64,000 nt of DNA from an uncultured Acidobacteriota bacterium. Its GTDB lineage: Bacteria; Acidobacteriota; Vicinamibacteria; Vicinamibacterales; CAVVIG01. The stretch is taken from NCBI GenBank assembly GCA_963722395.1, contig CAVRLS010000013.1:129896-193895 (forward strand), read 5' to 3'. The notes under the pieces were generated by a model. That model had not been told where the DNA came from, did no database searches, and saw only the letters and a list, made by a program, of their open reading frames with translations. Below, in pieces: positions 327 through 55,538 of this stretch (the stretch's first letter is position 1; every line of letters begins with the position of its first letter). Made by a program: the position numbers and the translations under genes.

Positions 327-677
327 ATGCCCAAGTTGACAGTCGAAGGTTTCGGGACGGTTGACGTTCCCGCAGGAAAGCGTCTGGTCCTGGCCATCCA
401 GGAGGACGCGAAGGTCGATATCCTTCACGCGTGTGGCGGCAACGCCCGCTGCACGACGTGCCGGATCGAGTTCATCGAAGGAGAGCCGACGACGCACACG
501 GCGGCGGAGGTGGAACGTCTCGCAGCGCGTGCCCTCACTGGCGTCCGGCTTGCGTGCCAGATCGTGTGCGACCACGACATGACGGTGCGCGCCATCAGTC
601 GCCTCGAAGGCAGCGGACGCCCCGACCCGGGGCCGCGGCCGCAGGACGCCATCACTCCAGAACCCCACTGGGTCTGA
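327..677 (+). CDS. 2Fe-2S ferredoxin-like protein
   Basis: Intact 116-aa ORF. Cys cluster HACGGNARCTTCRIEF ... LACQIV matches the plant-type 2Fe-2S binding pattern. Confidence 0.75.
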   Translation: MPKLTVEGFGTVDVPAGKRLVLAIQEDAKVDILHACGGNARCTTCRIEFIEGEPTTHTAAEVERLAARALTGVRLACQIVCDHDMTVRAISRLEGSGRPDPGPRPQDAITPEPHWV

Positions 678-684
678 TGCGGCC

Positions 685-1545
685 ATGAGTGGCCGTCGTG
701 CCGCGATCGCCGCCGTCTGCGCGGCGGTCGCGGCTTTCTCCTCGGTCGCCCGCTCCGCCCCCGGTCCCGTTCCGGACATTCTCGTCTCGCGGCAGCTGCT
801 CGAGTCGCAGCAGTTGCAGGTGGGCGACCTCGTCGCCCTCTCATCCGACACCTCGGGCTCACACCCTCGTTCGTTCCGTGTCGCCGGCCAGTACGAACCG
901 ACGCCGGATCCGATGCGGCTGGGCGCGGTGCGGCTCGAAGTGCGCATGCACCTGCCCGATGTCCTCGACATGACGGCGCCGTCCGACCCGCTCGAAGCCG
1001 AGTCGGTCGATGCCATCAACGTGGTGCTGGCGAAGAACGACGATGCGCGGGCCACCGCACGCCGCCTCGTCAGCCGCTGTGCCGGGTGCCGTGGCGCAGC
1101 GCACCGGCAGCGACGAGCGCCGTGCGGCGCCGTTCGTCGTGCTCGAACGCTTCCACCTCGCCATTGCCATCGTCACGGTGATCGCAAGCAGCGTGTTCCT
1201 GCTCGCGCTGATGCTGATGCTGGTCGACGAACGGCGGGCTACCGTCGGCATGCTGCGGCTGATCGGCTTCCGCCGCTCGCGCATCCTGCAGCATGTGCTG
1301 CGCGGAAGGCGTGGTCATCGCGCATCGCAGGCGCGCTGTTCGGCGTGGTGCTTTCAGTGCTGATGGAGGGCGGCATCAACCGATTCTTCCAGTGGCGTTA
1401 CGACACCGCGCTGGTGTTCGTCCACATTACGCCTGGCGTCGCGCTGCAGTCGGTGGCGGTTGCCGTGCCGCTCGGCGTGCTCGCCATCTTCGCATCGTCG
1501 TGGACGCTGCTGCGCGGCGAGGGGATCTCGCTGACCCGCCGATGA
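685..1545 (+). CDS. FtsX/MacB-type ABC permease (AttF/AttG-like); internal segment out of frame as assembled
   Basis: N- and C-termini are in the frame of ORF 685..1545 (C-terminal TM helices GALFGVVLSVLMEGG...AVPLGVLAIFASSWTLL). The FtsX core VVLERFHLAIAIVTVIASSVFLLALMLMLVDERRATVGMLRLIGFRRSRILQHVL is only readable in ORF 1010..1363, and AEGVVIA in ORF 1293... At least 3 frame switches. Confidence 0.7.
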   Translation: MSGRRAAIAAVCAAVAAFSSVARSAPGPVPDILVSRQLLESQQLQVGDLVALSSDTSGSHPRSFRVAGQYEPTPDPMRLGAVRLEVRMHLPDVLDMTAPSDPLEAESVDAINVVLAKNDDARATARRLVSRCAGCRGAAHRQRRAPCGAVRRARTLPPRHCHRHGDRKQRVPARADADAGRRTAGYRRHAAADRLPPLAHPAACAARKAWSSRIAGALFGVVLSVLMEGGINRFFQWRYDTALVFVHITPGVALQSVAVAVPLGVLAIFASSWTLLRGEGISLTRR

Positions 1546-2741
1546 GAGTCCTGGCGTTCGCGGTCAGGAGTCTGGTGCGGCAGCCGGGCCGCACGGCGCT
1601 CGGCATCATCGGCATCGCCGCTGTCGGTGCACTGCTGTTCGACATGCTGCTGTTGTCGCGCGGGCTGGTGGTGTCGTTTCGCGACCTGCTCGACAGCGTC
1701 GGCTTCGACGTCCGCGTCACCGCCACCGATTCGCCGCTGCTCGGCGGCATCCGCCTGAAGGACGCGACTGGCGCTGGCGCAGATCTGCGGCACTGCCGGC
1801 GATCGCCGAAGCCGTGCCGCTGCGAACCGCCACCGGTGAGGTCTGGCAGACCGGACGGCCGCGTCATTGGCCTGACGCTGACCGGCATGGACCCGGGCGA
1901 ACGGCGACCGTGGACGATGGTCAGCGGTGCCGACCTCGGCTCGAACCTCGACGCCGCCAGGACCTGGTGGTGAACCAGTCGCGATGGACGAGGTCGGCGG
2001 CGCGATCGGCAGAGACGGTCGACGCCTGCGCAGCGGCTGCGACTCCAGCCGTGCCGCCCTCGCCGCCGCGCACCTTCCGCATCGTCGGCGTGGCGCGAGT
2101 TCCCGTTCGACGACGAGGCGCAGCACACGGCGGCGATGACGCGCTCGGCCCTGCGCGAGGCGTGCGGCGACGATCGCGACGAGGCCGACATGCTGCTGGT
2201 GGCGTCGAGCGAGTGGAGCCGCCGACCGCTGTCGCGGCGATCAGGGCGGCGCGTCCAGACCTCGTGCCGGTCACCAACGAACAGATCGTCGCCCGGATGC
2301 AGGCACAGGGCTTCACCTACTTCCGCCAGATCTCGACGGTGCTTTCGACGATCACGATGCTCTTCGGCTTCCTGCTGATCACCGTGCTGCTCACGGTGTC
2401 CGTGAACCAGCGGCTGGCGGAGATCGCCGCGCTGCGTGCGCTCGGCTTCTCGCGCCGACGCGTCGCACTGGACGTGCTGGCGCAGCGGTGCCATGCTGGT
2501 GGGAGCGGGCGGCGTGCTGGCGCTGCCGCTCGGCTTCGCCCTCTCGCTCTGGCTCGACCGGATTCTCAAGGCGATGCCGGGCATTCCTGCGTCGATGCAC
2601 TTCTTCGTGTTCGAGCCGCGTGCGCTGGTGCTCCACGCCGCGCTGCTCGTGACGACGACGCTGCTGGCGTCGGCCTATCCGATGTGGCTGGTCGCCCGCC
2701 TGCCGATTGCGACCACGCTGCGGAACGAGGTGGTGTCGTGA
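1542..2741 (+). pseudogene. second FtsX/MacB-type ABC permease, frameshift-disrupted as assembled
   Basis: Start MRVLAFAVRSLVRQPGRTALGIIGIAAVGALLFDMLLLSRG (ATGA overlap with the upstream stop). FtsX core TVLSTITMLFGFLLITVLLTVSVNQRLAEIAALRALGFSRRRV is in the frame of ORF 1814..3433. C-terminus ...LALPLGFALSLWLDRILK...YPMWLVARLPIATTLRNEVVS is in ORF 2436..2741. Confidence 0.7.
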
Positions 2742-3433
2742 TGGAGCCGCTCATCGAGGCCCGGTCGCTCGGCAAGACGTTTCCGATGGGCGGCGGGTCC
2801 GGTGCACGCGCTGCGCGACATGTTCGCGTGCAGATTGCGGCCGGCGAGTACCTGACGATTCGTGGACCATCCGGCTGCGGCAAGTCGACGCTGCTGCACA
2901 TCCTCGGCTGCGTCGATACGCCAAGTTCAGCGGCGCGCTGCACTTCGACGGACGCGACGTCAGCGCGCTGCGCTGACCGTGCGCGCAGCGATCTGCGGCT
3001 GCGCAGCATCGGCTTCGTCTTCCAGCGCTTCTTCCTGCTGCCGATGCTGACCGCCGCGGAGAACGTCGACGTGCCGCAGGCGGAGGCCGGCGTGCCGCGC
3101 GCCGACCGGAAGCGCCGCACGGCCGAACTGCTCGACTACGTCGGGCTCGGCCACCGCGCCAATCACCGGCCATCGCAGCTGTCAGGTGGCGAAGCACAGC
3201 GTGTGGCAATCGCGCGTGCCCTGGCCAACCGTCCGCGCCTGCTGCTCGCCGACGAGCCGACGGGTGAACTCGATCGCGCCAACGGCGAACAGATCGCCGA
3301 ACTGCTCGACCGCGTGCAGGCCGACGGCACGACGGTCGTTGTCGTCACCCACGATGTGGCCCTGGCCGAGCGCGCCGCCCGGCGGCTGGTGATGCGCGAC
3401 GGTCTGATCGAACGCGAGGAGCACGCGCCGTGA
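2741..3433 (+). CDS. ABC transporter ATP-binding protein (LolD/MacB/AttE-like); two short compensated out-of-frame stretches
   Basis: Walker A GPSGCGKSTLLHILG, signature LSGGEAQRVAIARAL, Walker B LLLADEPTGELD, VVVVTHD. Near 2795-2825 and 2920-2960 the expected residues (PVHALRD; GALHFDGRDVSAL) are readable only in other frames. Confidence 0.85.
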   Translation: MEPLIEARSLGKTFPMGGGSGARAARHVRVQIAAGEYLTIRGPSGCGKSTLLHILGCVDTPSSAARCTSTDATSARCADRARSDLRLRSIGFVFQRFFLLPMLTAAENVDVPQAEAGVPRADRKRRTAELLDYVGLGHRANHRPSQLSGGEAQRVAIARALANRPRLLLADEPTGELDRANGEQIAELLDRVQADGTTVVVVTHDVALAERAARRLVMRDGLIEREEHAP

Positions 3434-12759: not shown

Positions 12760-14376
12760 GTGCAGGGCAGTACGCGGCACGCTCCTTGCTCCCGGCCCCG
12801 CATCGCTTCCTCATCTTCTACTACGCGCTCGTCGGGCTCATCGTCCGCGTGCACCGGACCTCAGGCTGATGTCGCTGTGGTTGGCGGAGGGCCGTCCGGC
12901 GCCGTGGCGGCGCGTCTGCTGGCCACATGGGGGCACCGCGTCGTGCTGTTGGCGCGAGACGATGATCCTGCGCGATCGCTCGCCAACTCACTCCCGCCGA
13001 GCACGCACAAACTACTGCAGCAAACCGGCATCACCGACCTCGTCGATCGCGTCGGCTTCCGCACGTTCGGCAACAGCGTCTGGTGGGGAGAGCGCGAAGG
13101 ACACAGCGAGCCGTTCTCGTCCGACGGCACGGCGTGGGGCTATCAGGTTGAACGCGCCGACCTCGACCCGTTGCTGCGCGACTCGGCAGAGGCCGCCGGT
13201 GCGCAGGTGCTGCGCGGTGCGCGGGTGCGGCAGGTGCGAATCACGCCCGACGACGAGGTCTCGGTTGCGTACGTGCTGGGCGGGCGCGAGCTCGCGTGCC
13301 GATCCCGCCTCGTGCTCGACTGCTCGGGTCGCGCGGGTATGGTGGCGGTGCCCCACGCGCTGCGTCGGCATGTGCCCGGTGGCCGGATGCAGGCCCTGGT
13401 TGGCGTGTGGGAGCGCGAGAATCGCTGGTCAGGCTTGCACCGCACGCACACCGTCATCGAGACCTGCGACGCCGGGTGGGGGTGGTCGATTCCGACCCGT
13501 GACACCAGGCGCCATGTCGGCATCATGGTCGACGGCGGCTCCGGCGGGGTGGACAGAGGTGGGTCGCTCGAGGCGACCTACCGCATGCAGCTCGCCCGCC
13601 TGCCACAGATCGACGGACAGGTGCACGACGCAAGGCTGGTGCGCGCCTTCGCCTGCGATGCCAGCGTCTACACCGCATCGCGATTTGCCGAGCACCGCCT
13701 GCTGCTCGTCGGCGACGCAGGTGCGACGCTCAACCCGCTATCGTCCTTCGGCATCAAGAAGGCGCTCGCGTCGGCGTGGCTGGCCGCCGTCGTCGCGCAC
13801 ACCTCGCTTGGGCATCCCGAGCGCGCCGACGTCGCCCGCGAGTTCTTCTCCCGCTGGTCCTCGCAGGTGTGGCACGTCAATCTGAAGCGCTCGAGCGAGT
13901 TCGCGGCGGAGGCGCTCGCCAGACATCCGGGCGCGTTCTGGCAGGCACAGGCGTCAGCCGTTGTCGACCAGAGGGAGCTGCCGCTCGACGACACGGCCCT
14001 GTTGACCTCGACCGATGTGCGCGCGGCACTCACGCAGCTTCGTGAGCGCGACACTTTTGTGCTGTTGCCCGCCGGTGAATCGACATTCGTGTCCGCGCCG
14101 ATCGTGCGTGGGCACGTGGTTGCGATTGAGCCCGCCGTGGCGCTCGGACCGGCGCCGCGCGACGTCGTGCGCTACGTGCGCGGTGTCGATCTCGTGGCAC
14201 TTGCTGGACTTGCCCCTGCTGCGCACGATGTGCCGGCGATTGTCGAGCGGTACTGCGCCCTGCACGGAGCCGTCGCACTGCCCGACATTCTTGGCGCCCT
14301 CGCCCTGCTGCTCGCCCGCGGCGTGCTCGCGATCGACGCGCCGACCAGCCCTCTCCACGCCTCCAAACGCGATTAG
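12760..14376 (+). CDS. FAD-dependent halogenase-fold flavoprotein; candidate QhpG-type Trp-modifying monooxygenase
   Basis: Intact ORF. Dinucleotide fold DVAVVGGGPSGAVAARLLA, WxWxIP-type motif GWGWSIP, LLLVGDAGATLNPLSSFGIKKAL. The GTG start at 12760 adds an odd 35-aa S/R-rich extension, so the start is uncertain. Assignment to qhpG rests on context only. Confidence 0.6.
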   Translation: MQGSTRHAPCSRPRIASSSSTTRSSGSSSACTGPQADVAVVGGGPSGAVAARLLATWGHRVVLLARDDDPARSLANSLPPSTHKLLQQTGITDLVDRVGFRTFGNSVWWGEREGHSEPFSSDGTAWGYQVERADLDPLLRDSAEAAGAQVLRGARVRQVRITPDDEVSVAYVLGGRELACRSRLVLDCSGRAGMVAVPHALRRHVPGGRMQALVGVWERENRWSGLHRTHTVIETCDAGWGWSIPTRDTRRHVGIMVDGGSGGVDRGGSLEATYRMQLARLPQIDGQVHDARLVRAFACDASVYTASRFAEHRLLLVGDAGATLNPLSSFGIKKALASAWLAAVVAHTSLGHPERADVAREFFSRWSSQVWHVNLKRSSEFAAEALARHPGAFWQAQASAVVDQRELPLDDTALLTSTDVRAALTQLRERDTFVLLPAGESTFVSAPIVRGHVVAIEPAVALGPAPRDVVRYVRGVDLVALAGLAPAAHDVPAIVERYCALHGAVALPDILGALALLLARGVLAIDAPTSPLHASKRD

Positions 14377-14669
14377 CGCCAGTTCTGTCGGCGTCGTCAA
14401 CCGCTTCCAGACACACGTGTGCGCTTTCCCCCGCACGTCGTGCGCTGCGTCGCGCCCCGACACCTGAACGAGATGCCGCAAACAAATCGATTTCGCGCGC
14501 AATCACGCAGTGAAACACGCGCGCTCGCGTCGTTGCGCAGCACGTGGTGAATGCGTCGTGCACACCGTGGCATACCCGTTGCTCTATCACCTGCAGACGA
14601 ACTATCGCAGCGACATGTTCGTTGGCACTCATTTCAGGGCAGACCGTGAGATCGATATCAGGAGGGGGC

Positions 14670-17444
14670 ATGACACGTGTGTGGTCGTTCGTGGTTGCGC
14701 TGATGCTGGTCGTTGGGATCGGCCCGGCTCTGGCGCAGCGCACGACAGGTGAGATCTCGGGGAAGGTGATTGATGAATCCGGCGGCACGCTGCCGGGCGT
14801 CACGGTGACGCTGCGAAGCGAAGCCATGCCGGGCGCAACGCCGGTCATCACCTCCGAAACCGGAACCTACCGGTTCCCGCTCCTGCCCGCCGGCAGCTAC
14901 GACGTCGAGTACGTGCTCGAGGGCTTTGCGGGCGCCAAATACGAAGCGATTCGGATCGCGGTTGGACAGACGATCGATCTGAACGTGACCATGAAGGTGA
15001 GCGCGCTCAACGAGACGCTGACCGTGACTGGCGTCGCGCCGGTGGTGAACGTCACCACGTCGGAGGTCAGCACGAATTACAACCGCGAGTGGGTGCAGAG
15101 CGCGCCGGTCCGACGGTTCTCCTACTTCGACCTGATCAACTCGGCGCCGGGCGTCAGCGCGACGTCGAACGTCGGACAGAGCACGTCGGCGCAGTCGCTG
15201 GGCAGCAGCACGAACGAGAACCAGTACCAGATCGACGGCACGGACATCAGCTCGACGCCGTGGCCCAACACCGACGCCATCGAGGAGGTGCAGGTGCTGC
15301 AGCTCGGGTGCGTCGGCCGAGTACGGCAACGTCCAGGGCGCCGTGTTCAACATCGTCACGCGCCAGGGCAGCGAACGTGTTCCACGGCGACGCGAACACC
15401 TACTATCAGAGCGAGCGCGCTGACCGGCTCGCAACACCACCGACGGCGGTCGACAAGGGCTTCCCCTACAACCGCGACACGCTACCGCGACGGCACCGTG
15501 CAGGCGGCTGGTCCCGTTCGTTCCGGACAAGTTCTGGTTCTTCGGCTCGATGCAGTACCAGCGCGACTGGGATTCGCAGCCAGGCGTCGACCCGACGCTG
15601 CCGACCAAGAACGACTCGCGCCGCATGTTCTGCAAGTTCAACTACGACCATCAACGCGAAGCACCGGTTGATGCACGGCTACCACAACGACTACTACTTC
15701 ATTCCGGAGATCGCCGACCAGCTTCACGGCGCCGAGCACGTGTCGTTGAGCCACGGCGACAACCCGACGCCGAACGTCGTCTACACCGGCGTGCTGACGC
15801 GACAAGACGTTCATGGAGGCGCGCTACTCGGGCTTCTGGCTCAATAGCTCGGTCGAACCCGAACGAGGACGGCGTACCGCGCGTGCTGACGCGCTTCGAG
15901 GATCGAGGACACCGGCCTCATCACCGGCGGCATCACGAACTGGACCGAGAACCGCAGCTGGCAGCTGGGGCACGGCAGTCAAGCTGTCGCACGTCGTCGA
16001 CTCGTTCCTCGGCGGCAGCCACGACATCAAGATCGGGCTGCAGTACGGCAGTCACGGCAGCGACAACCTGAACGGTCCGAACGACGTCCTCACCACGTTC
16101 AGCCAGACCGGCCGGCCGACGGCGGGCACGACGCAGTTGCCGTATCACCAGGGCGCGCAGGTCTACTGGAACGGCGTCTACGTCGACGACACCTTCCGTC
16201 TCGGCGCGCGCCGTCGCTCAACCTCGGCGTCCGCTACGACCACAGTCGCGGCATCGTTCCCGTCGTTCCCGCTGCTCGACGCCACCGGCTTCCCGACCGG
16301 CGCGATGTCGGCCGCGAACGACAATGTCTACTCGTGGAACACGTTCTCGCCGCGCGTCGGCCTGAACTAGCAGGTGACCGACGTCCGGCAACACGGTGGT
16401 GAAGGCGCACTACGGCCGCTACTACAAGGCGCTCGAGCCGGGCGAGTTCCGCCGGCGCGGTGCCGTCGATCTCGCCGGCCTTCGAGCTTCGCGCTCGACG
16501 CGGCGGGCGATCGCGTCGAACTTCGTGCAGACGTCGAGCAACGCCAACCTGCGCATCGACCCGGACTTCAAGGCGCCCTACAACGACCAGTTCATGGTGC
16601 AGCTCGAGCAGGAGCTGCGTCGCCGAACCTCGGCCTGCAGGTGAACTACGTGCACAAGCGAGGCGAGGACTACGGCGGCGTGGCAGGACATCGCCGGCAC
16701 CTACGTCCAGGTGCCCTACGTCGACAACGTCGGCATCGACGCCACCGGCCAGACGGTGATGGTCTACCGCCTCACTCAGCAACCCGGCCGACCGCGTCTT
16801 CCTGCAGACGAATCCAGACGGGATGTACATGCGCTACAACGGCGTCACCGTCACGGCTGACCAAGCGCATGTCGAACAACTGGCAGGCGGTGTTCTCGCT
16901 CGTGCTGTCGAAGGCTGAGGGTCGCCTCGGCTCGAGCGCCCGCGCCACGTCGACGACCGACGCAGAGCAGCCAGGCGCGGGCACCTTCGGTCGTGAGCGG
17001 CCGGCCCGAACGACTTCGTCAACACCGACGGCCGGCTCGATCGGCGATCGTCCGGTCGTCGCCAAGCTGCAGCTGATCTACAGGCTCCCGCTGGGGCATC
17101 ATGGTCGTCGGCCAACGTGCAGCACCAGACCGGCCGCTTCTACTCGCGCCAGGTCCGCGTGTCGCGGCCTCGGCTTCCCGGCGCCGCCGACCATCAACAT
17201 GGAAGCGAACACCGGCGACCGCCGCGTGCCGGACGTCAACCTGATCGACTTGCGCGCGCAGAAGGAGTTCGACCCTCGCCGGCTCGCGAGCTTCGGCGCT
17301 GTTCCTCGACGCGCTGAACCTGACCAACAGCGATCAGAGCGAAGGCGTCGGCGTCGTCGCTCGGCACCTCGACGTCGTTCGGCGTCGCCGACGCGCTACA
17401 TCCCGCCGCGCCGCGTGCAGCTCGGCGCCAAGTTCCGCTGGTAG
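14670..17444 (+). pseudogene. TonB-dependent receptor with CarboxypepD_reg N-terminal domain, heavily frameshifted as assembled
   Basis: RBS aggaggggg, then MTRVWSFVVALMLVVGIGPALAQRTTGEISGKVIDESGGTLPGVTVTL... (frame of ORF 14544..15671). Continuation pieces ASAEYGNVQGAVFNIVTRQGS, NVFHGDANTYYQSE, MQYQRDWDSQPGVDPTLPTKNDSRRMF, HRLMHGYHNDYYFIPE, FLGGSHDIKIGLQYGSHGSDN, NANLRIDPDFKAPYNDQFMVQLEQEL and the terminal YIPPRRVQLGAKFRW are scattered over all three frames. The first break is near 15305. Confidence 0.8.
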
Positions 17445-17510
17445 CACCACGCCGCAGGCACCCGGTCAGATGCGGCATCGGAGGTCTGCACTCTTCAGAA
17501 GTCGATTATC

Positions 17511-17528
17511 GGCGGCCTGCGGGCCGCC
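17511..17528 (+). terminator. short GC hairpin downstream of the TonB receptor gene
   Basis: ggcggcc-tgcg-ggccgcc, a perfect 7-bp stem 67 nt after the stop. No U-tract, so function is uncertain. Confidence 0.3.
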
Positions 17529-17543
17529 TCGTGGAGAGTGCTC

Positions 17544-17948
17544 ATGAAGATTGTGCGAATCGGATTGCCGCGTGCTGACGTTGTCGTGAGCGGCGTGCCG
17601 GCGTTCGCCGGTGAACTGGCGGCAGCGCCGCGAAGCGGCCGCCGCCGCGGCAAGGACGCCGACACGCAGGAGACGCCCGGTCGGGACGGCGACCGAAGCC
17701 GATGGTGCTGGCCGGCGCCGCGCTGTTCGCCGGCGGCATGGCGTCGGGCTGTCTACGGCTTCATCAACAACAAGAACGGCGAGCTACTCGGAGTTCGGCG
17801 AGGCTTCGGCGAGCAACGAGAAGCTCGGGCGCCGCCGGACTGGGCGCGGCGTTCGCGGGCGGCACGATGATGTTCCTCGGCACGCCACGGCAAGCGCATG
17901 CCGTCGGTCACCGTCGGCGCCGTGGCGTCGGCGTCGCGAAGAAGGTGA
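17544..17948 (+). pseudogene. small hypothetical exported/Gly-rich protein, frameshifted as assembled
   Basis: MKIVRIGLPRADVVVSGVPAFAG... Then, in other frames: MVLAGAALFAGGMASG / VYGFINNKNGE / YSEFGEASASNEKLG / AAGLGAAFAGGTMMFLG / RMPSVTVGAVASASRRR-stop (17946-17948), 1 nt before the qhpA start. The reconstruction is tentative. Confidence 0.3.
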
Positions 17949-17949
17949 C

Positions 17950-19700
17950 ATGGTGAGATGGCGCGCCAGTCGCTGTCATGGATTCCGCGCCGTTCTGCTC
18001 GCCGGCATCGGCGCGGCCGCTGCGGCGACGTCGGCGCCGCGCAGGCGCACTGCGGCCGATGCCGGCATCCCGATCGAGAGCGAGCTCGTCAAGCAGCAAG
18101 TGCGGCGACTGCCACACGCCCGACGACCAGAAGCGGATGACCCGCATCTCGTATCGGCGCGCCACCCCGGAGAACTGGGAGCGGACGATCAAGCGGATGA
18201 TCACCATCAACAAGGCGGCGCTCGAGCGCCGCCGACGCCCGCGCGATCGTCAAGTACCTCGTCCGACCACAACGGCCTTGCGCCCGAGGAAGCGCGGCCG
18301 GTCGCGTTCGAGGCCGAACGCCGCCTGATCGACGTGCACCTACGACGGCGACAAGGACACGGCCACCGCTGCTGCTCGGGGTGCCACTCGATCGGCCGCG
18401 TCATGAGCGAGCGGCGGACGAAGGAGGAGTGGGAGGCTGCTGATCGCGATGCATCGCGGCTACTACCCGCTGGTCGACAACCAGCCGATCAACTGAACGG
18501 GCCAGGGCTTCCGCCGGTCGCGCGCGCCGTGCCGTCGCCGAGGACGCCGCCGACAAGCGCCATCCGATGGACACGGCGATCGAGCACCTCGCCAAGGCGT
18601 TCCCGCTGATCACCCCGGAGTGGACGGAGTGGACGCGCCGCGTGGCAGCCGCCAACCTCGGCGGCACGTGGGCGCTCACCGGCTAACGATCCCGGGCAAG
18701 GGTCCGGTCTACGGTGAGATGACCGGTCACGGCCGATGCCGGCCGCCGGACACGTTCGTCACCGACGACGACGCTACACGGTCGGCGAAGACCGGCGAGA
18801 CCGCGTCGCGCACCGGCAAGGCGCTCGTCTACACCGGCTTCCAGTGGCGCGGCCGCGGCGCCGACGCGGCGCAAGCCGGACGAGCCGTGGCGTGAGGTGA
18901 TGTTCGTCGAGCGCGACCGCAGCGAGATGTGGGGCCGCTGGTTCACCGGCGCCTACGACGAGATCGGCATCGACGTGAAGCTGGTGAGGCTCGGCGGCGA
19001 TCGCCGATGGTCCTCGGCACCAGCCGGCTCGCGCTGAAGACGCGGCGCCACGGCCAGCGTCACGATCTTCGGCGCGAACCTGCCGGCGACGCTCACGCCG
19101 GCGACGTCAGCCTCGGCGCCGGCATCACCGTCACGCAGCGTCGCCGTCGGCGCAACGACGCGGTGACCGTCGACGGTGACGGTGGCCGCCGACGCGACGG
19201 CCGGGGCCGCGCGACCTCGTCGTCGCCGGCGTGGTGAAGCCCTCGGCGCTGGTCGTCTACGACAAGGTCGACGGCGTGCGCGTGCTGCCGCGGGCCGGCC
19301 TGGCGCGCGTCGGCGGCGCGGTCTTCCCGAAGGGGTACCAGCAGTTCGAGGCGATGGCCTTCAACAACGGTCCCGACGGCAAGCCGAACACCAGCGACGA
19401 CTGGCACCTCGGCGCTGGTCGACGCGACGTGGAGTGTCGAGGAGTACACGGCGACGTTCGACGACGACGACCTGAAGTTCGTCGGCGCGATCGACGCGAG
19501 ACCGGCCTCTTCACGCCGAACGTCGACGGCCCGAACCCGGACACGCAGCGGCAATCGCAACAACATCGGTGACGTCTGTGGATCGTCGCCGACTACACGC
19601 CGGAACGGTGCGCGCCGAGCCGATCCGCGCGCGCGCGCAGCTCGTGCGTCGCACCTCCGGTCTACATGCGCTGGATCGGCATCGGAGGCCGGTACAATGA
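17950..19700 (+). pseudogene. qhpA: quinohemoprotein amine dehydrogenase alpha subunit (di-haem cytochrome c), frameshifted as assembled
   Basis: MVRWRASRCHGFRAVLLAGIGAAAAA (signal). First haem motif CGDCHTPDDQKRMTRISYRRATPENWERTIKRMITINKAALE. Then ARAIVKYL.SDHNGLAPEEARPVAFEAERRLID. Second haem motif CSGCHSIGRVMSERRTKEEWE. Distal pieces VYDKVDGVRVLPRAGLARVGGAVFPKGYQQFEAMAFNNGPDGKPNTSDDWHLG and GLFTPNVDGPNPD..NRNNIGDVWIVADYTPE. All three frames are used. Confidence 0.8.
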
Positions 19701-21166
19701 CACGTCTTGGCGCTCGGGAACATCACCGCTTCGAAGCCGCCGGGAAGCCGTTCGTCTATCTCGTGCCGAGCGCCGCGATCTTCGCGCTCGACGCCGGCCG
19801 CCGACGCGGTGCTGCAGGCGCTCGGGTCCGGGCCGCAGTCCCGCGACGAGCTCGCTGACGACTGTCTACCGGCCGATCTTCGGCCGACGAGGAGCTGGAC
19901 GCCACGGTCGACGAGCTGGTCACGGTGCGGGCGATCGGCCCGATCGCGCCGCCGCAGCCGATGCCGAAGATCCTGCCGCTGACAGCCGTTCCCGCTCGAC
20001 GACGATGGTGCTCAACGTGACCAACCAGTGCAACCTCGCGCTGCACCTACTGCTACGAGTACGGCGAGGACAAGATCGTCGACACCGAGAACGGCAAGAA
20101 GCCGAAGTTCATGACCGAGGAGACGGCGCGCGGCAGAGCGTCGACTTCATGCTCAAGGAGTCGGGCGACAACCAGGTGCGCCCACCTCACGTTCTTCGGC
20201 GGCGAGACGCTGATGAACTTCCCGGTGCTGAAGCAGACCATCGCCTACGCGCGGCAGCGGGCGGCGGAGGTCGGCAAGGAGGTCGACTTCAGCCTGACGA
20301 CCAACGCGACGCTGCTGCAAGCCGGAGATCATCGAGTTCCTCGTCGAGAACGACGTCGGCGTCACCATCTCGATCGACGGTCCGCCGGAGATGCAGGACA
20401 AGTTCCGCGTCTTCCACAACGGCACCGGCAGCTACGACATCGTGGCGCCGAAGATCAAGGAGCTGCTGCAGCAGCACCGCAACCGCCCGATCGGCGCGCG
20501 CGTCACGCTGACCGTCGGCAACCTCGACGTCACGCGCATCTACAGGCACCTGACCGAGGAGTTCGGCTTCCGCGAAGTCGGCTTCGCGCCGGTCACCACC
20601 GTCGTCGAAGCGCGACTACGCGCATCGACGAGCAGGGCTTCGACGACGATGCTCGACGCAGTTCCGCGCGCTGGCCGAGGAGTTCCTGGATGCGGCGGTC
20701 GAAGGGCCGTCATCACGGCTTCTCGAACGTCAAGGAGACGCTCGAGGAGATTCACAAGGGGATGAGCAAGGCGTATCCCGTGCGGCGCCGGCACTCGGGC
20801 TGATGGGCGTGTCCACCGACGGCGACGTGGCGCTGTGCCACCGCTTCGCCGGCTCCGACGACGCACAAGCTCGGCACCGTGCGCGACGGCATCGACCGCG
20901 CGGCGCAGGCGGCGTTCCTCGACACGCATCACGTCGCCGACAAGACCGACTGCAGCACCTGCTGGGCGCGCCCGGTCTGCTCGGGCGGCTGCTACCACGA
21001 GGCGCACACGCGCTACGGCGACACGACCAAGGCCAACCTGCACTACTGCGACTGGATCCGCGGCTGGACCGACGTCTGCCTGCAGATCTACGGCGAGCTC
21101 GCGGAGCGCAACCCCGCGTTCCTCGCGCAGTTCGATCGCGAGCCGACGGCCGAGAAGGTCAGCTAG
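19697..21166 (+). pseudogene. qhpD: radical SAM/SPASM peptide-crosslinking maturase, frameshifted as assembled
   Basis: MTRLGAREHHRFEAAGKPFVYLVPSAAIFALD. Radical-SAM site VLNVTNQCNLA.CTYCYEYGE. HLTFFGGETLMNFPVLKQTIAYAR, FSLTTNATLL, ISIDGPPEMQDKFRVFHNGTGSYD. SPASM end CGAG..MGVSTDGDVALCHRF and DCSTCWARPVCSGGCYHEAH..HYCDWIRGW. Pieces lie in ORFs 19666.., 20111.., 20391.., 20803.., 20879..21166. Confidence 0.85.
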
Positions 21167-21179
21167 CACCGAGGAGATC

Positions 21180-21548
21180 ATGAGACATCTGAAGGCAATC
21201 AATCAGAAGGCGGCTCGCATCGAGCAGTACGTCGAAGCGCAGCAGGAGGCGATTGCCGCCGCGGGCGACGGACGTCGTCGCGCTGCAGCGCGGCGGCCGC
21301 CGCAGCAGCCGGCCGGCCGCACATCCCGCTCGGCTGCTCGCTGGTCTTCTCGCCCGGCTGGGAAGTCGGATCGCACCGGCGGCACGGCCGGTCTCTGTCA
21401 GCCGGTCGAGCGCGACCTGTTCGACTGCCACATCGGCTGCTACTGGCCGGCGCAGGTGCCGGACCAGCTCAATCACGCCCCCGACTGGACCACCAAGTGC
21501 GCGGCCGCCCAGAAGGACTGGCGCAAGATCGACCTCGTCTTCCCGTAA
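21180..21548 (+). CDS. qhpC: quinohemoprotein amine dehydrogenase gamma-subunit precursor (CTQ/thioether peptide); internal compensated frame excursion
   Basis: RBS gaggag. Leader MRHLKAINQKAARIEQYVEAQQEAIAAAG. The core reads ..GCSLVFSPGWEV (other frame, ~21330-21366), then RTGGTAGLCQPVERDLFDCHIGCYWPAQVPDQLNHAPDWTTKCAAAQKDWRKIDLVFP. Cys/Glu/Asp/Trp spacing matches QHNDH gamma (see finding). Confidence 0.85.
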   Translation: MRHLKAINQKAARIEQYVEAQQEAIAAAGDGRRRAAARRPPQQPAGRTSRSAARWSSRPAGKSDRTGGTAGLCQPVERDLFDCHIGCYWPAQVPDQLNHAPDWTTKCAAAQKDWRKIDLVFP

Positions 21549-21568
21549 GGTCAGGAGCCGGATCAGCC

Positions 21569-22745
21569 ATGAGAGTTTCGTTCGGTTTCACACGCTGGCC
21601 GTCGCGCTCGCGCGTGTCCGCGCTGCTGGCGCCGCTCGGCGCCCAGGGCGAAGGCCAGGCGCCGGTGTCGGCCGGCAACGGCACGCTGTACGTCGGCATC
21701 GTTCCCGGACCACTTCTGGATGATCGACGAGGCCACCGCCACGATCACCGGGAAGATCCCGTTCACGTCCGGCATGCCCCGGCGCACGTCGCTGTCGCGC
21801 GATCGCACCCGCTTCTACACCGTCGAGGCGCAGCATGGAGAAGGTCGAGATCATCGACATCGCGTCGCGCAAGACGATCGACACGTTCACGCTGCAGCGA
21901 GGGCGAACAGCAAGGTCCGCATCAAGAGCGCTCGAGCCCGATCCGACGCACCGCTTCGTGATGATGGTCACCCGCACCGCGCACCGAAGCACATCGACCG
22001 CTGGGAGATCGGGCCGTCGGCGCTCGTGCAGTACGACCTCGCGCACGCACAAGATCGCGCGCACGCATCCCGTGGCCGAACGGCGAGGAGCGCGAGAACG
22101 CCAACGATCCAGTTCTCGCCCGACGGCAAGCTGATGTACCTGTTCAGCGAGCAGGACGTCCTGATCTACGAGACCACCGACGTTCACGCAGGTCGACAAG
22201 TGGGAGCTCTCGAAGCCGGTCGAGGAGGGCTTCGGCGCGCTTCGAGTTCGGTCAGATCGACGCCGTCAACGACGAGCCCGGCTTCTACACCGCGCATCTT
22301 CACACGTGCAGGATCCGGTGCAGAACCGCCGCATGATGGGCATCGGCCGCGTCAACCTGGCGGCCAAGACGGTCGACTTCTACACCCTCGGTCCGGCGAC
22401 GCAGGTCGGGCTTCACGATGGCGCCCGAGCCGCAAGGTGGCCTACGGCCTGATGTCAGCGAGATCGGCCACTACGAGTTCTGGAAGTTCGACCTCGAGGG
22501 ACGAGCGGGTCGCCGCGCGCGCCGAGTTCGAGGGCCGCCCGCGCATGTCGCTCGAAGACCAGCTCGAACGGCAAGGTGCTCTACATCTACAACGCCGGCG
22601 AGACGATCGACCTCTACGACGCCGACGACCTTCAAGTTCATGAAGACGATCGACCTCGACGGCGACATGACCACCGACATGTTCGTCGTTCCCGGTCCGG
22701 CGTCCGGCACGAGCCGACCACCTCGCGCCGAAGGTCGCACGATGA
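21569..22745 (+). pseudogene. qhpB: quinohemoprotein amine dehydrogenase beta subunit (beta-propeller), frameshifted as assembled
   Basis: RBS aggag, then MRVSF... signal. Propeller-like pieces across frames: GNGTLYVGIVPGP, MIDEATATITGKIPFTSGMPRRTSLSRDRTRFYTVEA, MEKVEIIDIASRKTIDTFTL, IQFSPDGKLMYLFSEQDVLIYETT, HYEFWKFDLE, VLYIYNAGETIDLYDAD, FKFMKTIDLDGDMTTDMFVVPGP. The exact stop is uncertain. Confidence 0.7.
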
Positions 22746-24491
22746 TCGATCCGCGACCTGCGCCGCGCGCTCCGGTTCGTGGCCCCGTACTGGCGGCGGC
22801 TGGCGCTGGTGCTGCTGCTCAGCCTGCTCAGCACCGCGCTGTCGCTTGTATCTGCCGCTGCTCTCGCGCGACTTCTTCGACCGCGCGCTGCTCGGGCGCG
22901 ACCCGTCCTGCGCTGCGTCCGGATCGTCGCTGCTGTTCGCGGGCGTCACCTCGTCGGCTTCGTCGCTCAACGTCGTCAGCGGCCTGCGCTACACGCGCGT
23001 GTCGGCCGACATCCTGTTCGACATGCGGCTGGACGATGTACCGCCACCTGCAGCGGCTGTCGCCGCGCTTCTACGCGCGCACGCGGCTCGGCGACATCAT
23101 GTCGCGCATCAACAACGACATCGGCGAGATCCAGCGCGTCGCCGCCGAGGCGGCGCTGGCCTGGGTCGGCAACGTGCTGTTCCTCGTCGGCACCGTCGGT
23201 GATGCTCGCCTGGCTCGACCTGCGGCTGTTCCTGCTGACCACGTGCACGGCGCCGTTCGGCCTCTGGGCGCTGCGTGCACTACCGCCGGCGGCTCGAGGG
23301 CAGGTCGCGCACGCTGCGCGAGACGCAGCGCCGACATCGGCAGCTTCCTGATCGAGACGCTCCAGGCGCATGCGGCTGGTCGTCACTTCGCAACGCGCAG
23401 GAGCGCGAGGTCGACGCGCTTCCGCAGGCGGAACGACGCCTTCATCGACGCGCTGATGTCGATGCAGATGGCTGTCGTACCTGTCGGGCGGCCTGCCTGG
23501 GCTGCTTCTGTCGGCGGGCACCGGCATGGTGTTCGTCTACGGCGGGCTGCGCGTGATCGACGGCGACGCTGACCGTCGGCACCTTCGTCGCCTTCATGGC
23601 CTACCAGATGCGCTTCCTGCCGCCGCTCCAGGCGCTGATGGGGCTGTACGCGAGCGTCGCGACGGCGCGGGTGTCGCTGCGGCGCGTCGCGGAGATCCTC
23701 GAGGCCCCGGTCGAGGTCGCAGGAGCGCCCGACGCCGGTGTCGCCATCTCCGTGCGCGGGCGCCTCGAGTTCGACAACGTCACGTTGTCGTTCGACCGCG
23801 GCCGTGCCGGTGCTCGACCAGCTGTCGTTCGCGGCCGACCCCGGCGAGGTGCTTGCCATCGTCGGGCCCGAGCGGCAGCGGCAAGTCGACGATCGCCGAT
23901 CTGTTGGTCCGCCTGCTCGATCCCGACGACGGTATCGTCCGGCTCGACGGCCACGACCTGCGACGTCTCCGGCTGCGCCGACCTGCGGCGCCACGTCGCC
24001 GTCGTCGAGCAGGACCCGTGCATGCTGCACGCCTCGATCGCCGACAACATCCGCTACGCCGCGCCCGAGGCAACCGACGCCGAGGTGCGGCGGCGGCGCG
24101 GCAGGCGGCGCTCGAGCCGTTCATCGCAGCCTTGCCGCAGGGCTACGACACCGTCGTCGGCGAGCGCGGCGCGGCGCTGTCGGCCGGCGAGCGGCAGCGT
24201 ATCGCGACCGCCCGGGCGTTTCTCGCCGATCCGGCGGTGCTCATCCTCGACGAGCCGACGGCGGCGCTCGATCCGGTGTCCGAGCGCGAGGTGATCGACG
24301 GGTACGAAGCGGTGATGCGCGGCCGCACGACGATCGTCATCACGCATCGGCTCGACGTGGCAAGCCGCGCCGACCGGGTGCTGGTGCTGGATGGATCGAG
24401 GCTGGTGGAGCAGGGGGCCCCAGCCGAACTGGCGCTCCGCGATGGGCGCTATGCCAACCTCTTCCCGGCGCAGCATGCGCAGGCACACTGA
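22742..24491 (+). pseudogene. qhpF: ABC exporter (fused TMD-NBD, type I) of the qhp cluster, frameshifted as assembled
   Basis: [105 protein letters not shown]. Walker A region [16 protein letters not shown] (read across a break), [34 protein letters not shown]. The last break is near 24100. Confidence 0.8.
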
Positions 24492-25176
24492 GCCGTCCGG
24501 CGCGGGCGTTCGCATTGCGGTCATCGACAGTGGCGTCCACGCCGCTCATCCGCACATAGAAGGAGTAGCGGGCGGGGTAGCGATAGGGGCGGGTGGGGCG
24601 CAGTCGGACGACTTCGTCGACCGGATCGGCCACGGCACGGCGGTCATGGCGGCCATCAAGGACCATGCTCCAGCCGCTGCGTGCTACGCCGTCCGTATCT
24701 TCGACTCGCGGCTCACTGCCTCGGCGTCGACGCTGATTGCAGCCATCGACTGGGCCATCGGCGCGCGCGTGCATCTGATCAACCTGAGCCTTGGGTCGTC
24801 CAATCCGTCGCACGAGGAGGCGTTCACCGGCGCCGTGGCACGCGCCGAGGCCGCTGGCGTCGCTCTGGTTTCCGCGCGAGACGATCAGGGCGTGTGGTGG
24901 CTGCCAGGCCGCTTGCCGGGCGTCGTGCAGGTTCAGTCCGACTGGGAATGCTCTCGCGGTGACTTGCGGGTCGTCCGCCTCGACGGGCAGCGCGTCTTTC
25001 GCGCCTCGGGCTTTGCCAGGCCGATTCCTGGAGTCGACCCTCGTCGCAACCTCCACGGCGTCAGCTTCGCGGTGGCCAACCTGACAGGCCTCCTTGCCAG
25101 AGCCATGAGTCTTGCGCCAGAGCTGTCGACTATCGCCGTGCTCGACAGGCTCGAGCGCACCGGCGTCGCTGTCTGA
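24475..25176 (+). CDS. qhpE: small subtilisin-like serine protease (QhpE-type leader peptidase)
   Basis: Intact 233 aa. Asp region VRIAVIDSGV, His region DRIGHGTAVMAAI, Ser region HGVSFAVANLTGLLA. Overlaps the qhpF stop by 17 nt. Confidence 0.75.
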   Translation: MRRHTEPSGAGVRIAVIDSGVHAAHPHIEGVAGGVAIGAGGAQSDDFVDRIGHGTAVMAAIKDHAPAAACYAVRIFDSRLTASASTLIAAIDWAIGARVHLINLSLGSSNPSHEEAFTGAVARAEAAGVALVSARDDQGVWWLPGRLPGVVQVQSDWECSRGDLRVVRLDGQRVFRASGFARPIPGVDPRRNLHGVSFAVANLTGLLARAMSLAPELSTIAVLDRLERTGVAV

Positions 25177-25543: not shown

Positions 25544-26434
25544 TTACTTGACGTTGACCTTGATCATGGCGGTCGTCCAGCAGCACGCGGTCGCGCCGCC
25601 CCCCTTTTCGGAGTAGTCGGTCAGAAGGACGTGCACGATGTAGTCGCCAGGCTTGTCGAAGGTGACCGTGCCCGAGGCCTTGCCGGCGAAAGCCTCCATC
25701 GGCTTGCCGCCCTTGCTGGCGGTGAAGTGGAAGCCCTCGGACTTCACGTTGCCGGGCCCGCGGTATTTGGTGATTTCGGCTTCGACGACCGGAGGCGTGC
25801 GGGTCATCGCCGCATTGGTGCCGCTCGAGTAAAGCGCATCGTCTTCCGCCCAGAGTTCGAGCGGCATCGGCACGTTGACCGTAGCCGTCTTCGAAATGGC
25901 GGAGGCGACCGTTGCCACCGGATTCTGGATGGCGGGGCCGCCTTCGGTGAAGCGCAGGACCGGCGGCACGTTGTACTTGCCGTTGGGTGATTCTTCGGAC
26001 GACTTCTGCGGCGTGATGTTGAAGTCGGGGCTCATGATCAGGCCGATGCGTGACGTGACGCCGTTGACCGTGAGCGACCACCACAGACGTTCGGTTGCGC
26101 CGAACGCCTTCGGGACGGTGATCGTGAACATGCCGAAGTTGCGGTTCGGCATGAAGTAGGTCGGCTGGCCTCGATCCGGATCGCCAGGCTCGAACTTGTT
26201 GTTCGGGCCGATTGGGATCTCGACATTGACGTTCCAGTTGCGGTTGTAGTAGCCGATCAGGAAGGTATGCGTGCCGTCCGGGTTGTCGTACCAGCCGTCA
26301 AAGGCCGGGGTGACGCTTGCCCCGAATCCCAGCTTTGGGCTGCTCGGAAGGAGCTGGCCCTGGGCCGAAACCATTGCACCGCCGGCGGCGAGCGCGGCAA
26401 CCGTCGCAAGGCGCAGAATCGTTCGTGAATTCAT
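25544..26434 (-). CDS. secreted hypothetical protein (partner of the PHM-like monooxygenase?)
   Basis: Intact 296 aa. Signal peptide MNSRTILRLATVAALAAGGAMVSAQG. No family recognised. C-terminal ..GGGATACCWTTAMIKVNVK. Confidence 0.6.
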   Translation of the reverse strand: MNSRTILRLATVAALAAGGAMVSAQGQLLPSSPKLGFGASVTPAFDGWYDNPDGTHTFLIGYYNRNWNVNVEIPIGPNNKFEPGDPDRGQPTYFMPNRNFGMFTITVPKAFGATERLWWSLTVNGVTSRIGLIMSPDFNITPQKSSEESPNGKYNVPPVLRFTEGGPAIQNPVATVASAISKTATVNVPMPLELWAEDDALYSSGTNAAMTRTPPVVEAEITKYRGPGNVKSEGFHFTASKGGKPMEAFAGKASGTVTFDKPGDYIVHVLLTDYSEKGGGATACCWTTAMIKVNVK

Positions 26435-26551
26435 GCTGACTCTCTACCGAAGAAGGTGTTCCGGGAGTTAATACCGAGCCGCCTGTATGTCATGCGGCAA
26501 GCGGGTCGATTGTAACCGAGGTAAAGGGCGCGGAAAACCATAAATGTCGAC

Positions 26552-26586
26552 AAAAAAGGGGACCGGAGCATTCGCTCCGATCCCCT
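26552..26586 (-). terminator. rho-independent terminator of the PHM-like gene
   Basis: Minus strand: ggggaucggagc-gaau-gcuccggucccc followed by uuuuuug, 29 nt after the stop at 26615. Confidence 0.75.
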
Positions 26587-26614
26587 TGTTCCGTCCGGCT
26601 CGGTTAGAGCGGGC

Positions 26615-28027
26615 TTACTGCTGCTGCTGGGTGGCCGCGGCCGGCTTGACGCCGTTCGTGACACCCTCGCCGTACTTCGCGACGCGCTCGGCGTACTCGG
26701 CGTCGTTCAGGTAGACGACGTTCATCCAGGCGTGCGCCATCTCGTCGACCGTGCGGTCGCCGTAACCCACCCACTGTTCCGGGTCGGGGTTGGCCTTGTT
26801 CGCCTTCGTGTTGTCGTAGAAGGCGGTGACGTGAATGATGGTGCCCTTCGGGAACACCGGCGAGGCCTCATCCTTGTAGATGTAGTTGGTCATCCAGTTG
26901 AAGTTGAAGTCCTTCACGTAGGAGATGACCTGGCTGCGGCCGTCCGGGAAGATCGCCTCGACCTGCATCGCCTTGCCACGCAGGTGGAAGTGCGGCTGGA
27001 AGTTGGTGATGATGGTGTTCTCACGCAGGACGGTGAAGCCCTCCGTGTGTGCCACCGAGTTCGGCGGAATGTCGAGACCGGCCGTGCCGTTCTTCAGGCC
27101 GCTGAAAGCCACGAGGTAGCTGCGCTTGGTCGGCTCTTCGCCCTTCTTGTAGAGCCACAGGCCGATTTCCGAACCGCCCTTGATTTCCTCGCCCATGGCG
27201 TGAACGTGCTGGTCCCAGGAGATTTTTTCACCTGGCATGATCAGCTTGCCGGTGCCGTCCAGGTAGCGGTCGTAGCCCTTGCCGATCGCCCATTCCATGA
27301 TCTGGGGACGACGGTTGACCAGTTCAGCGGCCTGCTGGGCAGGGGTGAGAGCGGCGCCGCCCGGCCGACCACCGCCGATGCCGGTGTTCACGGCAGCGGT
27401 GTTCTCGGGGTTCAGGACGTGATACGCGATCGAGTGATGGAGAATCTTGCGGGCGTTGAGGTTGGTCGGACGAATCTCGACCATCCGGACCCAGCGGGGC
27501 TCGGTGACCGGAATATCGCTGACCGGACGCCACCACTGGTCCTGCGAGACCGCAGGCATGGTGTATTCGGGCGACTTCACCACGAGGTCGGGTGCGCCGT
27601 AGCCGTCGCGCTCACCCTGCCAGAACAGCGAGGTGGCGACCGGCTTGGCCTTGAAGTCGGCCGGGTTGCCCTCGAGGGCGCCGCCGTCGACCCACGCCAC
27701 GACCGTCGCGACCTGCTCATCGGTCAGCGACATGTCGTTCTTGAACTTCGTGACGCCGACACTGCGGTCGATGTGCCACGGCGGCATCTGGCGCGATTCA
27801 ACGCGCTGCTTGATCGAGCGGGCCCACGGGCGCGCATCCTGGTAGGTGACCAGGGACATCGGGCCGATCGAGCCGGGTTCGTGGCACGACTGGCACTTGG
27901 ACTGGAAAATGGGCGCTACGTCCTTGCTGAACGTCACCTGCTTGCCCTGCTGCGCGAACGCAGCGCCGGGCAGCGCGAGGAATGCGCCGACGGCGATTCC
28001 AAGGTGGAGCTTCGAACCATGCATCAT
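26615..28027 (-). CDS. periplasmic c-type haem + PHM/DBH-like (copper type II ascorbate-dependent monooxygenase fold) protein
   Basis: Intact 470 aa. Signal peptide, then haem motif CQSCHEPGSIGPMSL. Ordered His/Met candidates KILHHSIAYH, WDQHVHAMG, FQPHFHLRGKAM and DEMAHAWM mirror the HH..H / HxH..M copper ligands of PHM. Confidence 0.6.
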   Translation of the reverse strand: MMHGSKLHLGIAVGAFLALPGAAFAQQGKQVTFSKDVAPIFQSKCQSCHEPGSIGPMSLVTYQDARPWARSIKQRVESRQMPPWHIDRSVGVTKFKNDMSLTDEQVATVVAWVDGGALEGNPADFKAKPVATSLFWQGERDGYGAPDLVVKSPEYTMPAVSQDQWWRPVSDIPVTEPRWVRMVEIRPTNLNARKILHHSIAYHVLNPENTAAVNTGIGGGRPGGAALTPAQQAAELVNRRPQIMEWAIGKGYDRYLDGTGKLIMPGEKISWDQHVHAMGEEIKGGSEIGLWLYKKGEEPTKRSYLVAFSGLKNGTAGLDIPPNSVAHTEGFTVLRENTIITNFQPHFHLRGKAMQVEAIFPDGRSQVISYVKDFNFNWMTNYIYKDEASPVFPKGTIIHVTAFYDNTKANKANPDPEQWVGYGDRTVDEMAHAWMNVVYLNDAEYAERVAKYGEGVTNGVKPAAATQQQQ

Positions 28028-50624: not shown

Positions 50625-50662
50625 ACCCTCAGGACGTAGCCGCGCACCGTCAGATGCGCAGT

Positions 50663-50729
50663 GTCGCGGACCTGAAGGTCCGCAGCTACGCACCGCAGCC
50701 GTACGGTATCTGCCGACCTTCAGGTCCGG
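50663..50729. repeat. REP-like double-hairpin element, copy 2
   Basis: 50663-50690 is identical to 4830-4857. The second hairpin gccgacc-ttca-ggtccgg is at 50712-50729. Lies between convergent serB and the SBP gene. Confidence 0.8.
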
Positions 50730-54589: not shown

Positions 54590-55538
54590 CAGGCGACGCG
54601 CCCTGGCGTGTTCGGGTCGAACGCGTCGCGCAGGCCGTCGCCGACGAGGTTGATCGCCAGCACCAGCACCACGAGCAGACCGGCCGGGAAGTAGAACTCC
54701 CACGGGAAGGTGAGCGCGGCGTCCGGCGTAGTCGCCGATCAGCGTGCCGAGCGACACGTCGGGCGGCTGCACGCCGAAGCCGAAGAACGACAGCCCCACC
54801 TCCGCGAGGATGAGCGAGCTGACGTTGATGGTGGCGTCGATGATGAGCAGCGACGCCATGTTCGGCAGGATGTGGCGGAAGATGATGCGCCAGCCGGGCA
54901 CGCCCATGAACCGCGCCGCCTGCACGAACTCGCGCTCGCGCAGCGACAGCGTCATGCCGCGGACGATGCGCGCGGTGACCATCCACTGGAAGGCGGCGAG
55001 CAGCACGACGAAGATGAGCCACGTGCTGGCCGCGGAACGACGGCGACAGGATGGCGATGATGAGGAACGCCGGCAGCACCATCAGCAGGTCGATGAGCGT
55101 CGAGCAGCGCCGTGTTCACGACGCCGCCGAAGTAGCCGGCGAACGCGCCGACGATGGCCGCCAGCGCCGTGGCCATCAGCGCACCGAGCAGCCCGATGAC
55201 CAGCGACTTCTGCATGCCGCGCATCGTCAGCGCGAACACGTCGAACCCGTTCTGCGTCGTGCCGAACCAGTGCGAGCCGCCCGGCGGCTCGAGGAAGGCG
55301 TTGAAGTCGAGCTCGGTTGTACTGCCAGGGACTGACGATACGGACTGAGGTACGCCAGCGCGAACAGCAGGATGACGATCGCGAGGCCGAACAGCGCGAG
55401 CCGCTGGCGGAGGAAGCGGCGCCGACCAGTCGCAGGCGTGAGGCTGCCGCCTCTTCGTACGGGCTGTGGGCCAGAACCCGAAAGAGTGCCGGTCTGCAGG
55501 CCCGGCGCAGGTCCGTCGTCTGGCACGGCGGTGGCCAT
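54589..55538 (-). pseudogene. peptide ABC transporter permease (OppC/DppC-like), frameshifted as assembled
   Basis: MATAVPDDGP...[114 protein letters not shown]. Pieces lie in several frames. TGATG overlaps at both ends. Confidence 0.8.

Follow-up and report, generated by a model that had tools for sequence, protein, structure and literature searches.

The window, by which we mean the whole 64,000-nt stretch of DNA that was analysed, contains a gene cluster for quinohemoprotein amine dehydrogenase (QHNDH). The cluster genes, at 12760-25176, were identified via orthologues with known Pfam domains. All six neighbours expected around qhpC (qhpA, qhpB, qhpD, qhpE, qhpF, and qhpG) were found, with qhpC lying between qhpD and qhpB (Table 1), and the host of this complete cluster is a Vicinamibacterales-like acidobacterium. 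A second qhpC copy was looked for in the window, and none was found. In the pathway described for this enzyme, QhpC is made with a leader, and the radical-SAM protein QhpD installs three Cys-to-Asp/Glu thioethers. QhpG dihydroxylates Trp43, QhpE cuts off the leader, and QhpF exports the crosslinked peptide, which joins QhpA and QhpB, with the CTQ cofactor being completed (PMC7876137).

Table 1 Genes, frame segments, and surplus bases of the qhp region (positions in the window)
Feature	Position	Strand	Remarks
qhpG-like FAD monooxygenase	12760..14376	+	intact, 0 frame breaks
TonB-dependent-receptor-like outer-membrane protein gene	14568..17444	+	clean to 15305 (~245 codons), then 34-35 breaks
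indel-dense patch	15306..24089	.	~8.8 kb, ~120 frame breaks, nearly all +1
small gene, 140-aa protein	17544-17953	+	6 frame breaks; no Pfam match
qhpA (dihaem alpha subunit)	17950..19690, approximate	+	~26 frame breaks
qhpD (radical-SAM thioether synthase)	19697..21166, start approximate	+	18 frame breaks
qhpD stop codon TAG	21164-21166	+	
Shine-Dalgarno-like GAGGAG	21171..21176	+	4 nt upstream of the qhpC ATG
qhpC as assembled	21180..21548	+	122-codon ORF plus stop; true product needs four frame changes
leader N-terminus MRHLKAINQKAARIEQYVEAQQEAIAAAGD (M...GD)	21180..21269	+	frame 1; fits the family motif M(K/R)HLKxxNxKAxRIE
surplus base (+1)	21270	+	GACG before DVVALQ, relatives GAC/GAG (Asp/Glu); found in DP alignments, MSA, and family alignment
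DVVALQRGG	21271..21297	+	frame 2; DVVALQ invariant in the family leader
PPQQPAG	21297..21317	+	frame 1; P41, Q42, Q43 invariant in alignment A1
PHIPLGCSLVFSPGWEV	21317..21367	+	frame 3; leader end and mature subunit start, with Cys7 and Glu16
surplus G (+1)	21368	+	between GTC and GAT; absent from JGI contigs L081, L082
remaining mature core DRTGG...DLVFP	21369..21545	+	frame 1; Cys27, Asp33, Cys37, Cys41, Trp43, Asp49, and the clade-specific fifth Cys
qhpB (beta subunit)	21570..22725, end approximate	+	20 frame breaks
qhpF (ABC exporter)	22700..24491, start approximate	+	15 breaks, last at 24089; C-terminal 130 aa clean
qhpE (subtilisin-like leader protease, Peptidase_S8)	24475..25176	+	intact, 0 breaks

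Between qhpG and qhpA lie a gene for a TonB-dependent-receptor-like protein, with CarboxypepD_reg, Plug, and beta-barrel domains, and the small gene for a 140-aa protein. This arrangement is kept in the orthologous loci L003, L038, and L039, which suggests a putative uptake component linked to the amine dehydrogenase genes. Downstream of qhpE, the minus-strand region 25544-28027 encodes two proteins, one of 296 aa with no Pfam match and one of 470 aa in which a cytochrome c motif is weakly matched. The window has a single copy of these two genes, whereas L029, L038, and L059 have them as a tandem duplication.

The frame path of qhpC and its corrected core

The assembled frame-1 ORF at 21180-21548(+) reads much as the original prediction described it, with a leader-like start followed by an Arg/Ala/Pro-rich stretch and then by ...DRTGGTAGLCQPVERDLFDCHIGCYWPAQVPD...DLVFP and a stop. 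The prediction had also placed part of the mature protein out of frame and proposed a one-base join, and both were borne out: GCSLVFSPGWEV is read in frame 3 at 21332-21367, and dropping base 21368 makes this stretch run into DRTGGTAGLCQP at 21369. The 71-aa core joined in this way gave gapless alignments with the two gamma subunits of known structure, over residues 6-76 of each: 1JMX chain G (Pseudomonas putida; E 1.2e-21) and 1JJU chain C (Paracoccus denitrificans; E 1.4e-21). The window protein also shares an N-terminal leader with them. All eight crosslink residues (Cys7, Glu16, Cys27, Asp33, Cys37, Cys41, Trp43, and Asp49) are conserved in register in the corrected core. The spacing given in the prediction is therefore correct, and its numbering agrees with the published crosslinks of the QHNDH gamma subunit, namely Cys7-Glu16, Cys27-Asp33, and Cys41-Asp49, with Cys37-Trp43 forming CTQ (PMC8172795; PMC7876137).

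The corrected core matched Pfam PF08992 (QH-AmDH_gamma) with 116.3 bits (E 6e-34; profile positions 4-74 of 75), and the assembled ORF matched it with 91.4 bits (E 3.8e-26; profile positions 11-74 only), the curated cut-off being 25 bits. Cys7 and Glu16 are absent from the assembled frame-1 product, and the full crosslink register appears only after frame correction. Judged by the gapless alignment, the PF08992 match, and the qhp neighbours, which together back the QhpC-type reading first proposed, the frame-corrected 21180-21548(+) encodes a QhpC (QHNDH gamma-subunit) precursor. The locus is a genuine and presumably functional qhpC, coding for the precursor of the quinohemoprotein amine dehydrogenase subunit that bears CTQ. 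The gene family is already known, and public databases contain annotated copies from Vicinamibacterales (e.g., P0004, 'MAG: quinohemoprotein amine dehydrogenase subunit gamma [Vicinamibacterales bacterium]'). The annotated copies have the same leader motifs and core, and the operon architecture of L001, L003, L029, L032, and L038 equals that of the window. However, the annotated QhpC of Vicinamibacterales is read in a single uninterrupted frame, whereas the window copy needs four frame changes.

A comparison with sister genomes, which had been proposed as a check, was run on two sets of sequences. First, 80 orthologous loci were fetched, almost all from MAGs labelled Vicinamibacterales or Acidobacteriota, with cores that share 87-97% identity with the window core. 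At least 70 of the 80 have one uninterrupted precursor frame of the form M(K/R)HLKxxNxKAxRIE...DVVALQ(R)GG.PPQQP..PHIPLGCSLVFSPGWE(A/V)DRTGG.... Second, a homologue search with the reconstructed precursor gave 2350 matches, the best of which was only 87% identical, so that a same-strain reference is absent. In an alignment of 13 of the best of these 2350 homologues (alignment A1), DVVALQ, G39, P41, Q42, Q43, H48, P50, G52, and C53 were invariant, and all 13 have a single uninterrupted frame.

Because the invariant DVVALQ is read in frame 2 and the invariant PQQ in frame 1, the path through qhpC runs 1→2→1→3→1, with four events and not two: +1 at 21270, -1 or +2 at ~21297, -1 or +2 at ~21317, and +1 at 21368. 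Bases 21297 and 21317 are each common to two neighbouring frame segments (PPQQPAG with the segment on either side). This means that the two middle events are either both -1, with GGCCCG read as GGCCG, or both +2. Over its full length, the 122-aa precursor reconstructed along this path shares 83-88% identity with the 13 family members in the alignment. What the prediction had set aside as a single out-of-frame block of junk is thus mistaken, as DVVALQRGG is read in frame 2, PPQQPAG is truly in frame 1, and PHIPLGCSLVFSPGWEV is in frame 3. A path with three insertions (frames 1→2→3→1, giving AAAAAGRPHIP) was also tried and was rejected, as it would destroy the family-invariant P-Q-Q that is intact in frame 1.

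The frame-1 ORF might instead be translated as it stands into a variant gamma subunit, one without the Cys7-Glu16 crosslink and with a long Arg/Ala/Pro-rich linker, given that it is open from ATG to stop and passes the PF08992 threshold. However, the segment that such a variant would lack is perfectly encoded in frame 3, DVVALQRGG is encoded in frame 2, and the reconstructed precursor shows full-length family identity. Furthermore, an exact look-up of the assembled 122-aa product returned no record, and no such linker was seen in any of the orthologous loci examined or in the best homologues that were aligned. We regard a variant product of this kind as extremely improbable.

In an exact-pattern scan of JGI metagenomes, two contigs (L081 and L082) were found to carry CCCGGCTGGGAAGTC joined to GATCGCACCGGCGGCACGGCC without the extra G of 21368. 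Their flanks match the window at this site over 15+21 identical nt; overall they are only 75-85% identical to the window, and they are informative only for site 21368. The original argument that the indels are artefactual or extremely recent is upheld by these flanks and by the uninterrupted orthologues. Exact look-ups were also made with the neighbouring intact proteins for another same-strain assembly, and only the 296-aa product of 25544-26434(-) matched. This product occurs on a contig of more than 1 Mb and on a 2.2-kb Logan contig (ERR12037361) whose mapped end lies at window position 24354, outside the patch.

The proteins of the window clade differ from the known gamma subunits in several features. 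Their leader is ~46-47 aa long, compared with 28 in Paracoccus QhpC (PMC7876137). In the window it spans 21180-21331, ahead of the mature core, and it carries the clade-specific invariant motifs DVVALQ and P-Q-Q. The P-Q-Q motif stands just upstream of the mature N-terminus, and the motifs may be recognition elements for QhpD or QhpE. In addition, a fifth Cys is invariant in the clade, at a position that is Ala in the two solved structures. This residue lies at 21498-21500 of the window, in ...TTKCAAAQKDWRK... (mature position 61), and is invariant in all 80 loci and in alignment A1. It stands in C-x5-D spacing to the conserved Asp of QKDW, which equals the spacing of the Cys27-Asp33 thioether, and it may belong to an additional crosslink made by QhpD or else remain a free thiol. 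The window protein ends in ...DLVFP, and its host is an acidobacterium, whereas the hosts of the solved structures are proteobacteria.

Indel-dense patches and the signature of the surplus bases

Frame breaks were counted with a custom frameshift-aware protein-to-DNA alignment that used orthologous proteins as references. tblastn without composition correction was dropped, since high-GC alternative frames gave long spurious alignments; a GC3 frame plot was too noisy for strand calls, and a codon-usage Viterbi was used in its place. We found that qhpC lies within a patch in which a surplus base occurs about every 70 nt. Both edges of this patch fall inside genes, at 15306 in the TonB-dependent-receptor-like gene and at 24089 in qhpF, and not at the operon edges; the flanks are clean, and no frame breaks were detected by the frameshift-aware alignment in the minus-strand genes downstream of qhpE. 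The original prediction had explained the broken frame by a single compensated pair of indels. The return to the starting frame holds, but the single pair does not, as qhpC has four events and the 8.8-kb patch around it ~120. That the frame comes back is coincidental, a by-product of the indel density and not compensation.

Further patches were called by the codon-usage Viterbi at ~595-2915, 49474-50708, and 52616-55664, the last over minus-strand genes, and no patch was called by this method at 26-48 kb of the window. At 49474-50708(+), a gene for a SerB-like phosphoserine phosphatase (ACT and HAD domains) is split over ~12 frame segments. When the frames were stitched, its HAD domain matched profile positions 1-188 of 189, and an ABC ATPase was likewise restored from the frames of these patches. 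The 595-2915(+) patch breaks an ABC permease/ATPase pair and the 52616-55664(-) patch an Opp-like ABC transporter, and the shift direction in these two patches fits +1 DNA insertions on both coding strands.

Once the frames are corrected, no stop codon remains in qhpD, qhpB, or qhpF. Their identities to L029, the closest short-read relative, are 85% (over the C-terminal 315 aa of qhpD), 81%, and 79%, respectively, and that of the intact qhpE is 78%. The patch has a dN/dS ratio of 0.17-0.31 and the clean flanks have one of 0.11-0.16, with dS being equal inside and outside. The dN values are somewhat higher in the patch (0.09-0.16 vs 0.04-0.08 in the flanks), which may come from codons misaligned at ~43 junctions. 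The lack of stops, the normal identities, the equal dS, and the low dN/dS together imply that the corrected frames have been under selection for essentially the whole divergence.

A comparison with seven relatives gave 49 insertions private to the window (43 of 1 nt, 5 of 2 nt, and 1 of 3 nt) and only 3 private deletions whose length is not a multiple of three. A homopolymer is extended by 6 of the 43 single-base insertions, compared with 51% expected (p = 7e-7). Most informative is the inserted base itself: in 38 of these 43, it equals an allele seen in relatives at the column directly beside it, the window having another base in that column. By chance, 14-18 ± 3 such matches would be expected, and 38 was not reached in any of 2000 randomisations. 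Examples are the GACG before DVVALQ, a CATC that stands against CTC (Leu) or ATC (Ile) in relatives, and the GTCG at 21365-21368, a site with Val or Ala in the family. A consensus that put down the two alleles of a variable site one behind the other would give this pattern, and we know of no mutational process that would. It should be noted that the closest relative available shares 84% DNA identity with the window, and at this distance the inserted base is often ambiguous. Among 24 unambiguous cases, the adjacent variable site falls at codon position 3 in 12, a proportion below that of typical within-species SNPs and a point against an artefact.

If the indels were real, the qhp cluster and its neighbours would have been inactivated very recently by a burst of +1 insertions, leaving a young cluster of pseudogenes. 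Such an inactivation is in keeping with the frames being broken in the deposited sequence and with the modestly raised dN of the patch. However, the patch begins and ends in mid-gene, nonsense codons are absent from the corrected qhpD, qhpB, and qhpF, and dN/dS in the patch is well below 1. The excess of insertions over deletions (~48 to 3) and the avoidance of homopolymers also speak against it, since bacterial indel spectra are known to us with the opposite pattern. In addition, recent inactivation of the qhp region does not account for the copying of the neighbouring allele in 38 of the 43 insertions or for the similar patches that break the SerB-like gene and transporters elsewhere in the window.

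A different way to accept the assembled DNA as correct is to invoke programmed frame changes, with ribosomal recoding or RNA editing restoring the frame and yielding a functional QhpC. The protein is perfectly conserved across the frame junctions, and reading returns to its original frame, both of which such a mechanism would provide. Nevertheless, it would have to act four times in 100 nt of qhpC and ~120 times in 8.8 kb, and on genes of both strands. No common slippery or stimulatory motif was seen at the junctions by eye, and the orthologues use one frame for the same protein. To our knowledge, no bacterial recoding system of such density exists, and programmed frame changes can hardly be credited here.

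The same signature in Nanopore-only MAGs

The same Viterbi run was applied to all 80 loci, and reference-based alignment agreed with it. Dense, patchy, insertion-like breaks were found only in loci of the Microflora Danica (MFD) long-read MAGs (L018, L023, L039, L041, L051, L071, and L072), at 1-3.3 calls per kb, whereas loci from short-read MAGs had three frame-break calls or fewer each. These seven loci are from GTDB species representatives that are MFD Nanopore MAGs. The MFD MAGs are Nanopore-only and were made with metaFlye and one Medaka round from soils of high microdiversity (PMC12313526). Like the window, the MFD loci show kb-scale patches with mostly +1 insertions that do not extend homopolymers, although the MFD locus nearest to the window has only 82% DNA identity to it. 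The adjacent-allele signature was present in the four MFD loci tested (25/32, 19/26, 13/19, and 13/19), and the short-read control locus had a single private insertion.

In L039, L041, L071, and L072, the dense patch ends at ~12.8-13.1 kb in locus coordinates, near the end of qhpF, as in the window. This end point, shared by patches of several independent MAGs, is counter-evidence to an artefact, and breaks over the same operon in several related MAGs likewise lend something to real inactivation. On the other hand, among the 80 loci only the Nanopore-only MAGs have dense breaks, and short-read MAGs of the same clade do not. Taken with the evidence from the patch itself, this makes an inactivated qhp cluster very improbable.

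The broken qhpC frame is, with high probability, a consensus artefact that arose in a mixed-strain long-read metagenome assembly. We infer that the window was derived from a Nanopore-type long-read assembly and that mixed strains were the cause; this reading draws on the assembled sequence and not on the reads. The agreement of the inserted base with the adjacent-site allele of relatives in 38 of 43 cases suggests that both variants of a SNP were written out consecutively. The long reads behind the consensus would stem from at least two closely related strains. At each site of difference, the consensus would keep the alleles in tandem instead of choosing one, leaving a +1 beside the polymorphic site, and occasionally a base would be dropped instead. 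Four such events in qhpC would then happen to restore the starting frame and so imitate a compensated frameshift. In the short-read MAG ASF_11, two separate qhpC loci (L057 and L059) were found, which points to paralogous qhp operons in some Vicinamibacterales. Such paralogous operons may add to the mis-assignment of reads in a long-read consensus.

The surplus bases could also be truly present in the DNA of the population, as a local +1 burst beside polymorphic sites that very recently silenced qhp and the other patches. Aberrant heteroduplex repair between two diverged alleles, for example, would leave both in tandem. We rate this as very improbable.

Under the preferred reading, a mixed-strain consensus artefact, the combination of neighbour-allele copying, homopolymer avoidance, and kb-scale patches would be usable to flag and repair mixed-strain consensus regions. 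Counts of pseudogenes, frameshifts, or 'recoding' in such assemblies should be filtered for this pattern. QhpC and the qhp maturation pathway are already well described, and their biology is little changed by our analysis. Read at face value, the window and several public Nanopore-only MAG loci would present the qhp operon, the SerB-like gene, and several transporters as pseudogenes, which is almost certainly wrong.
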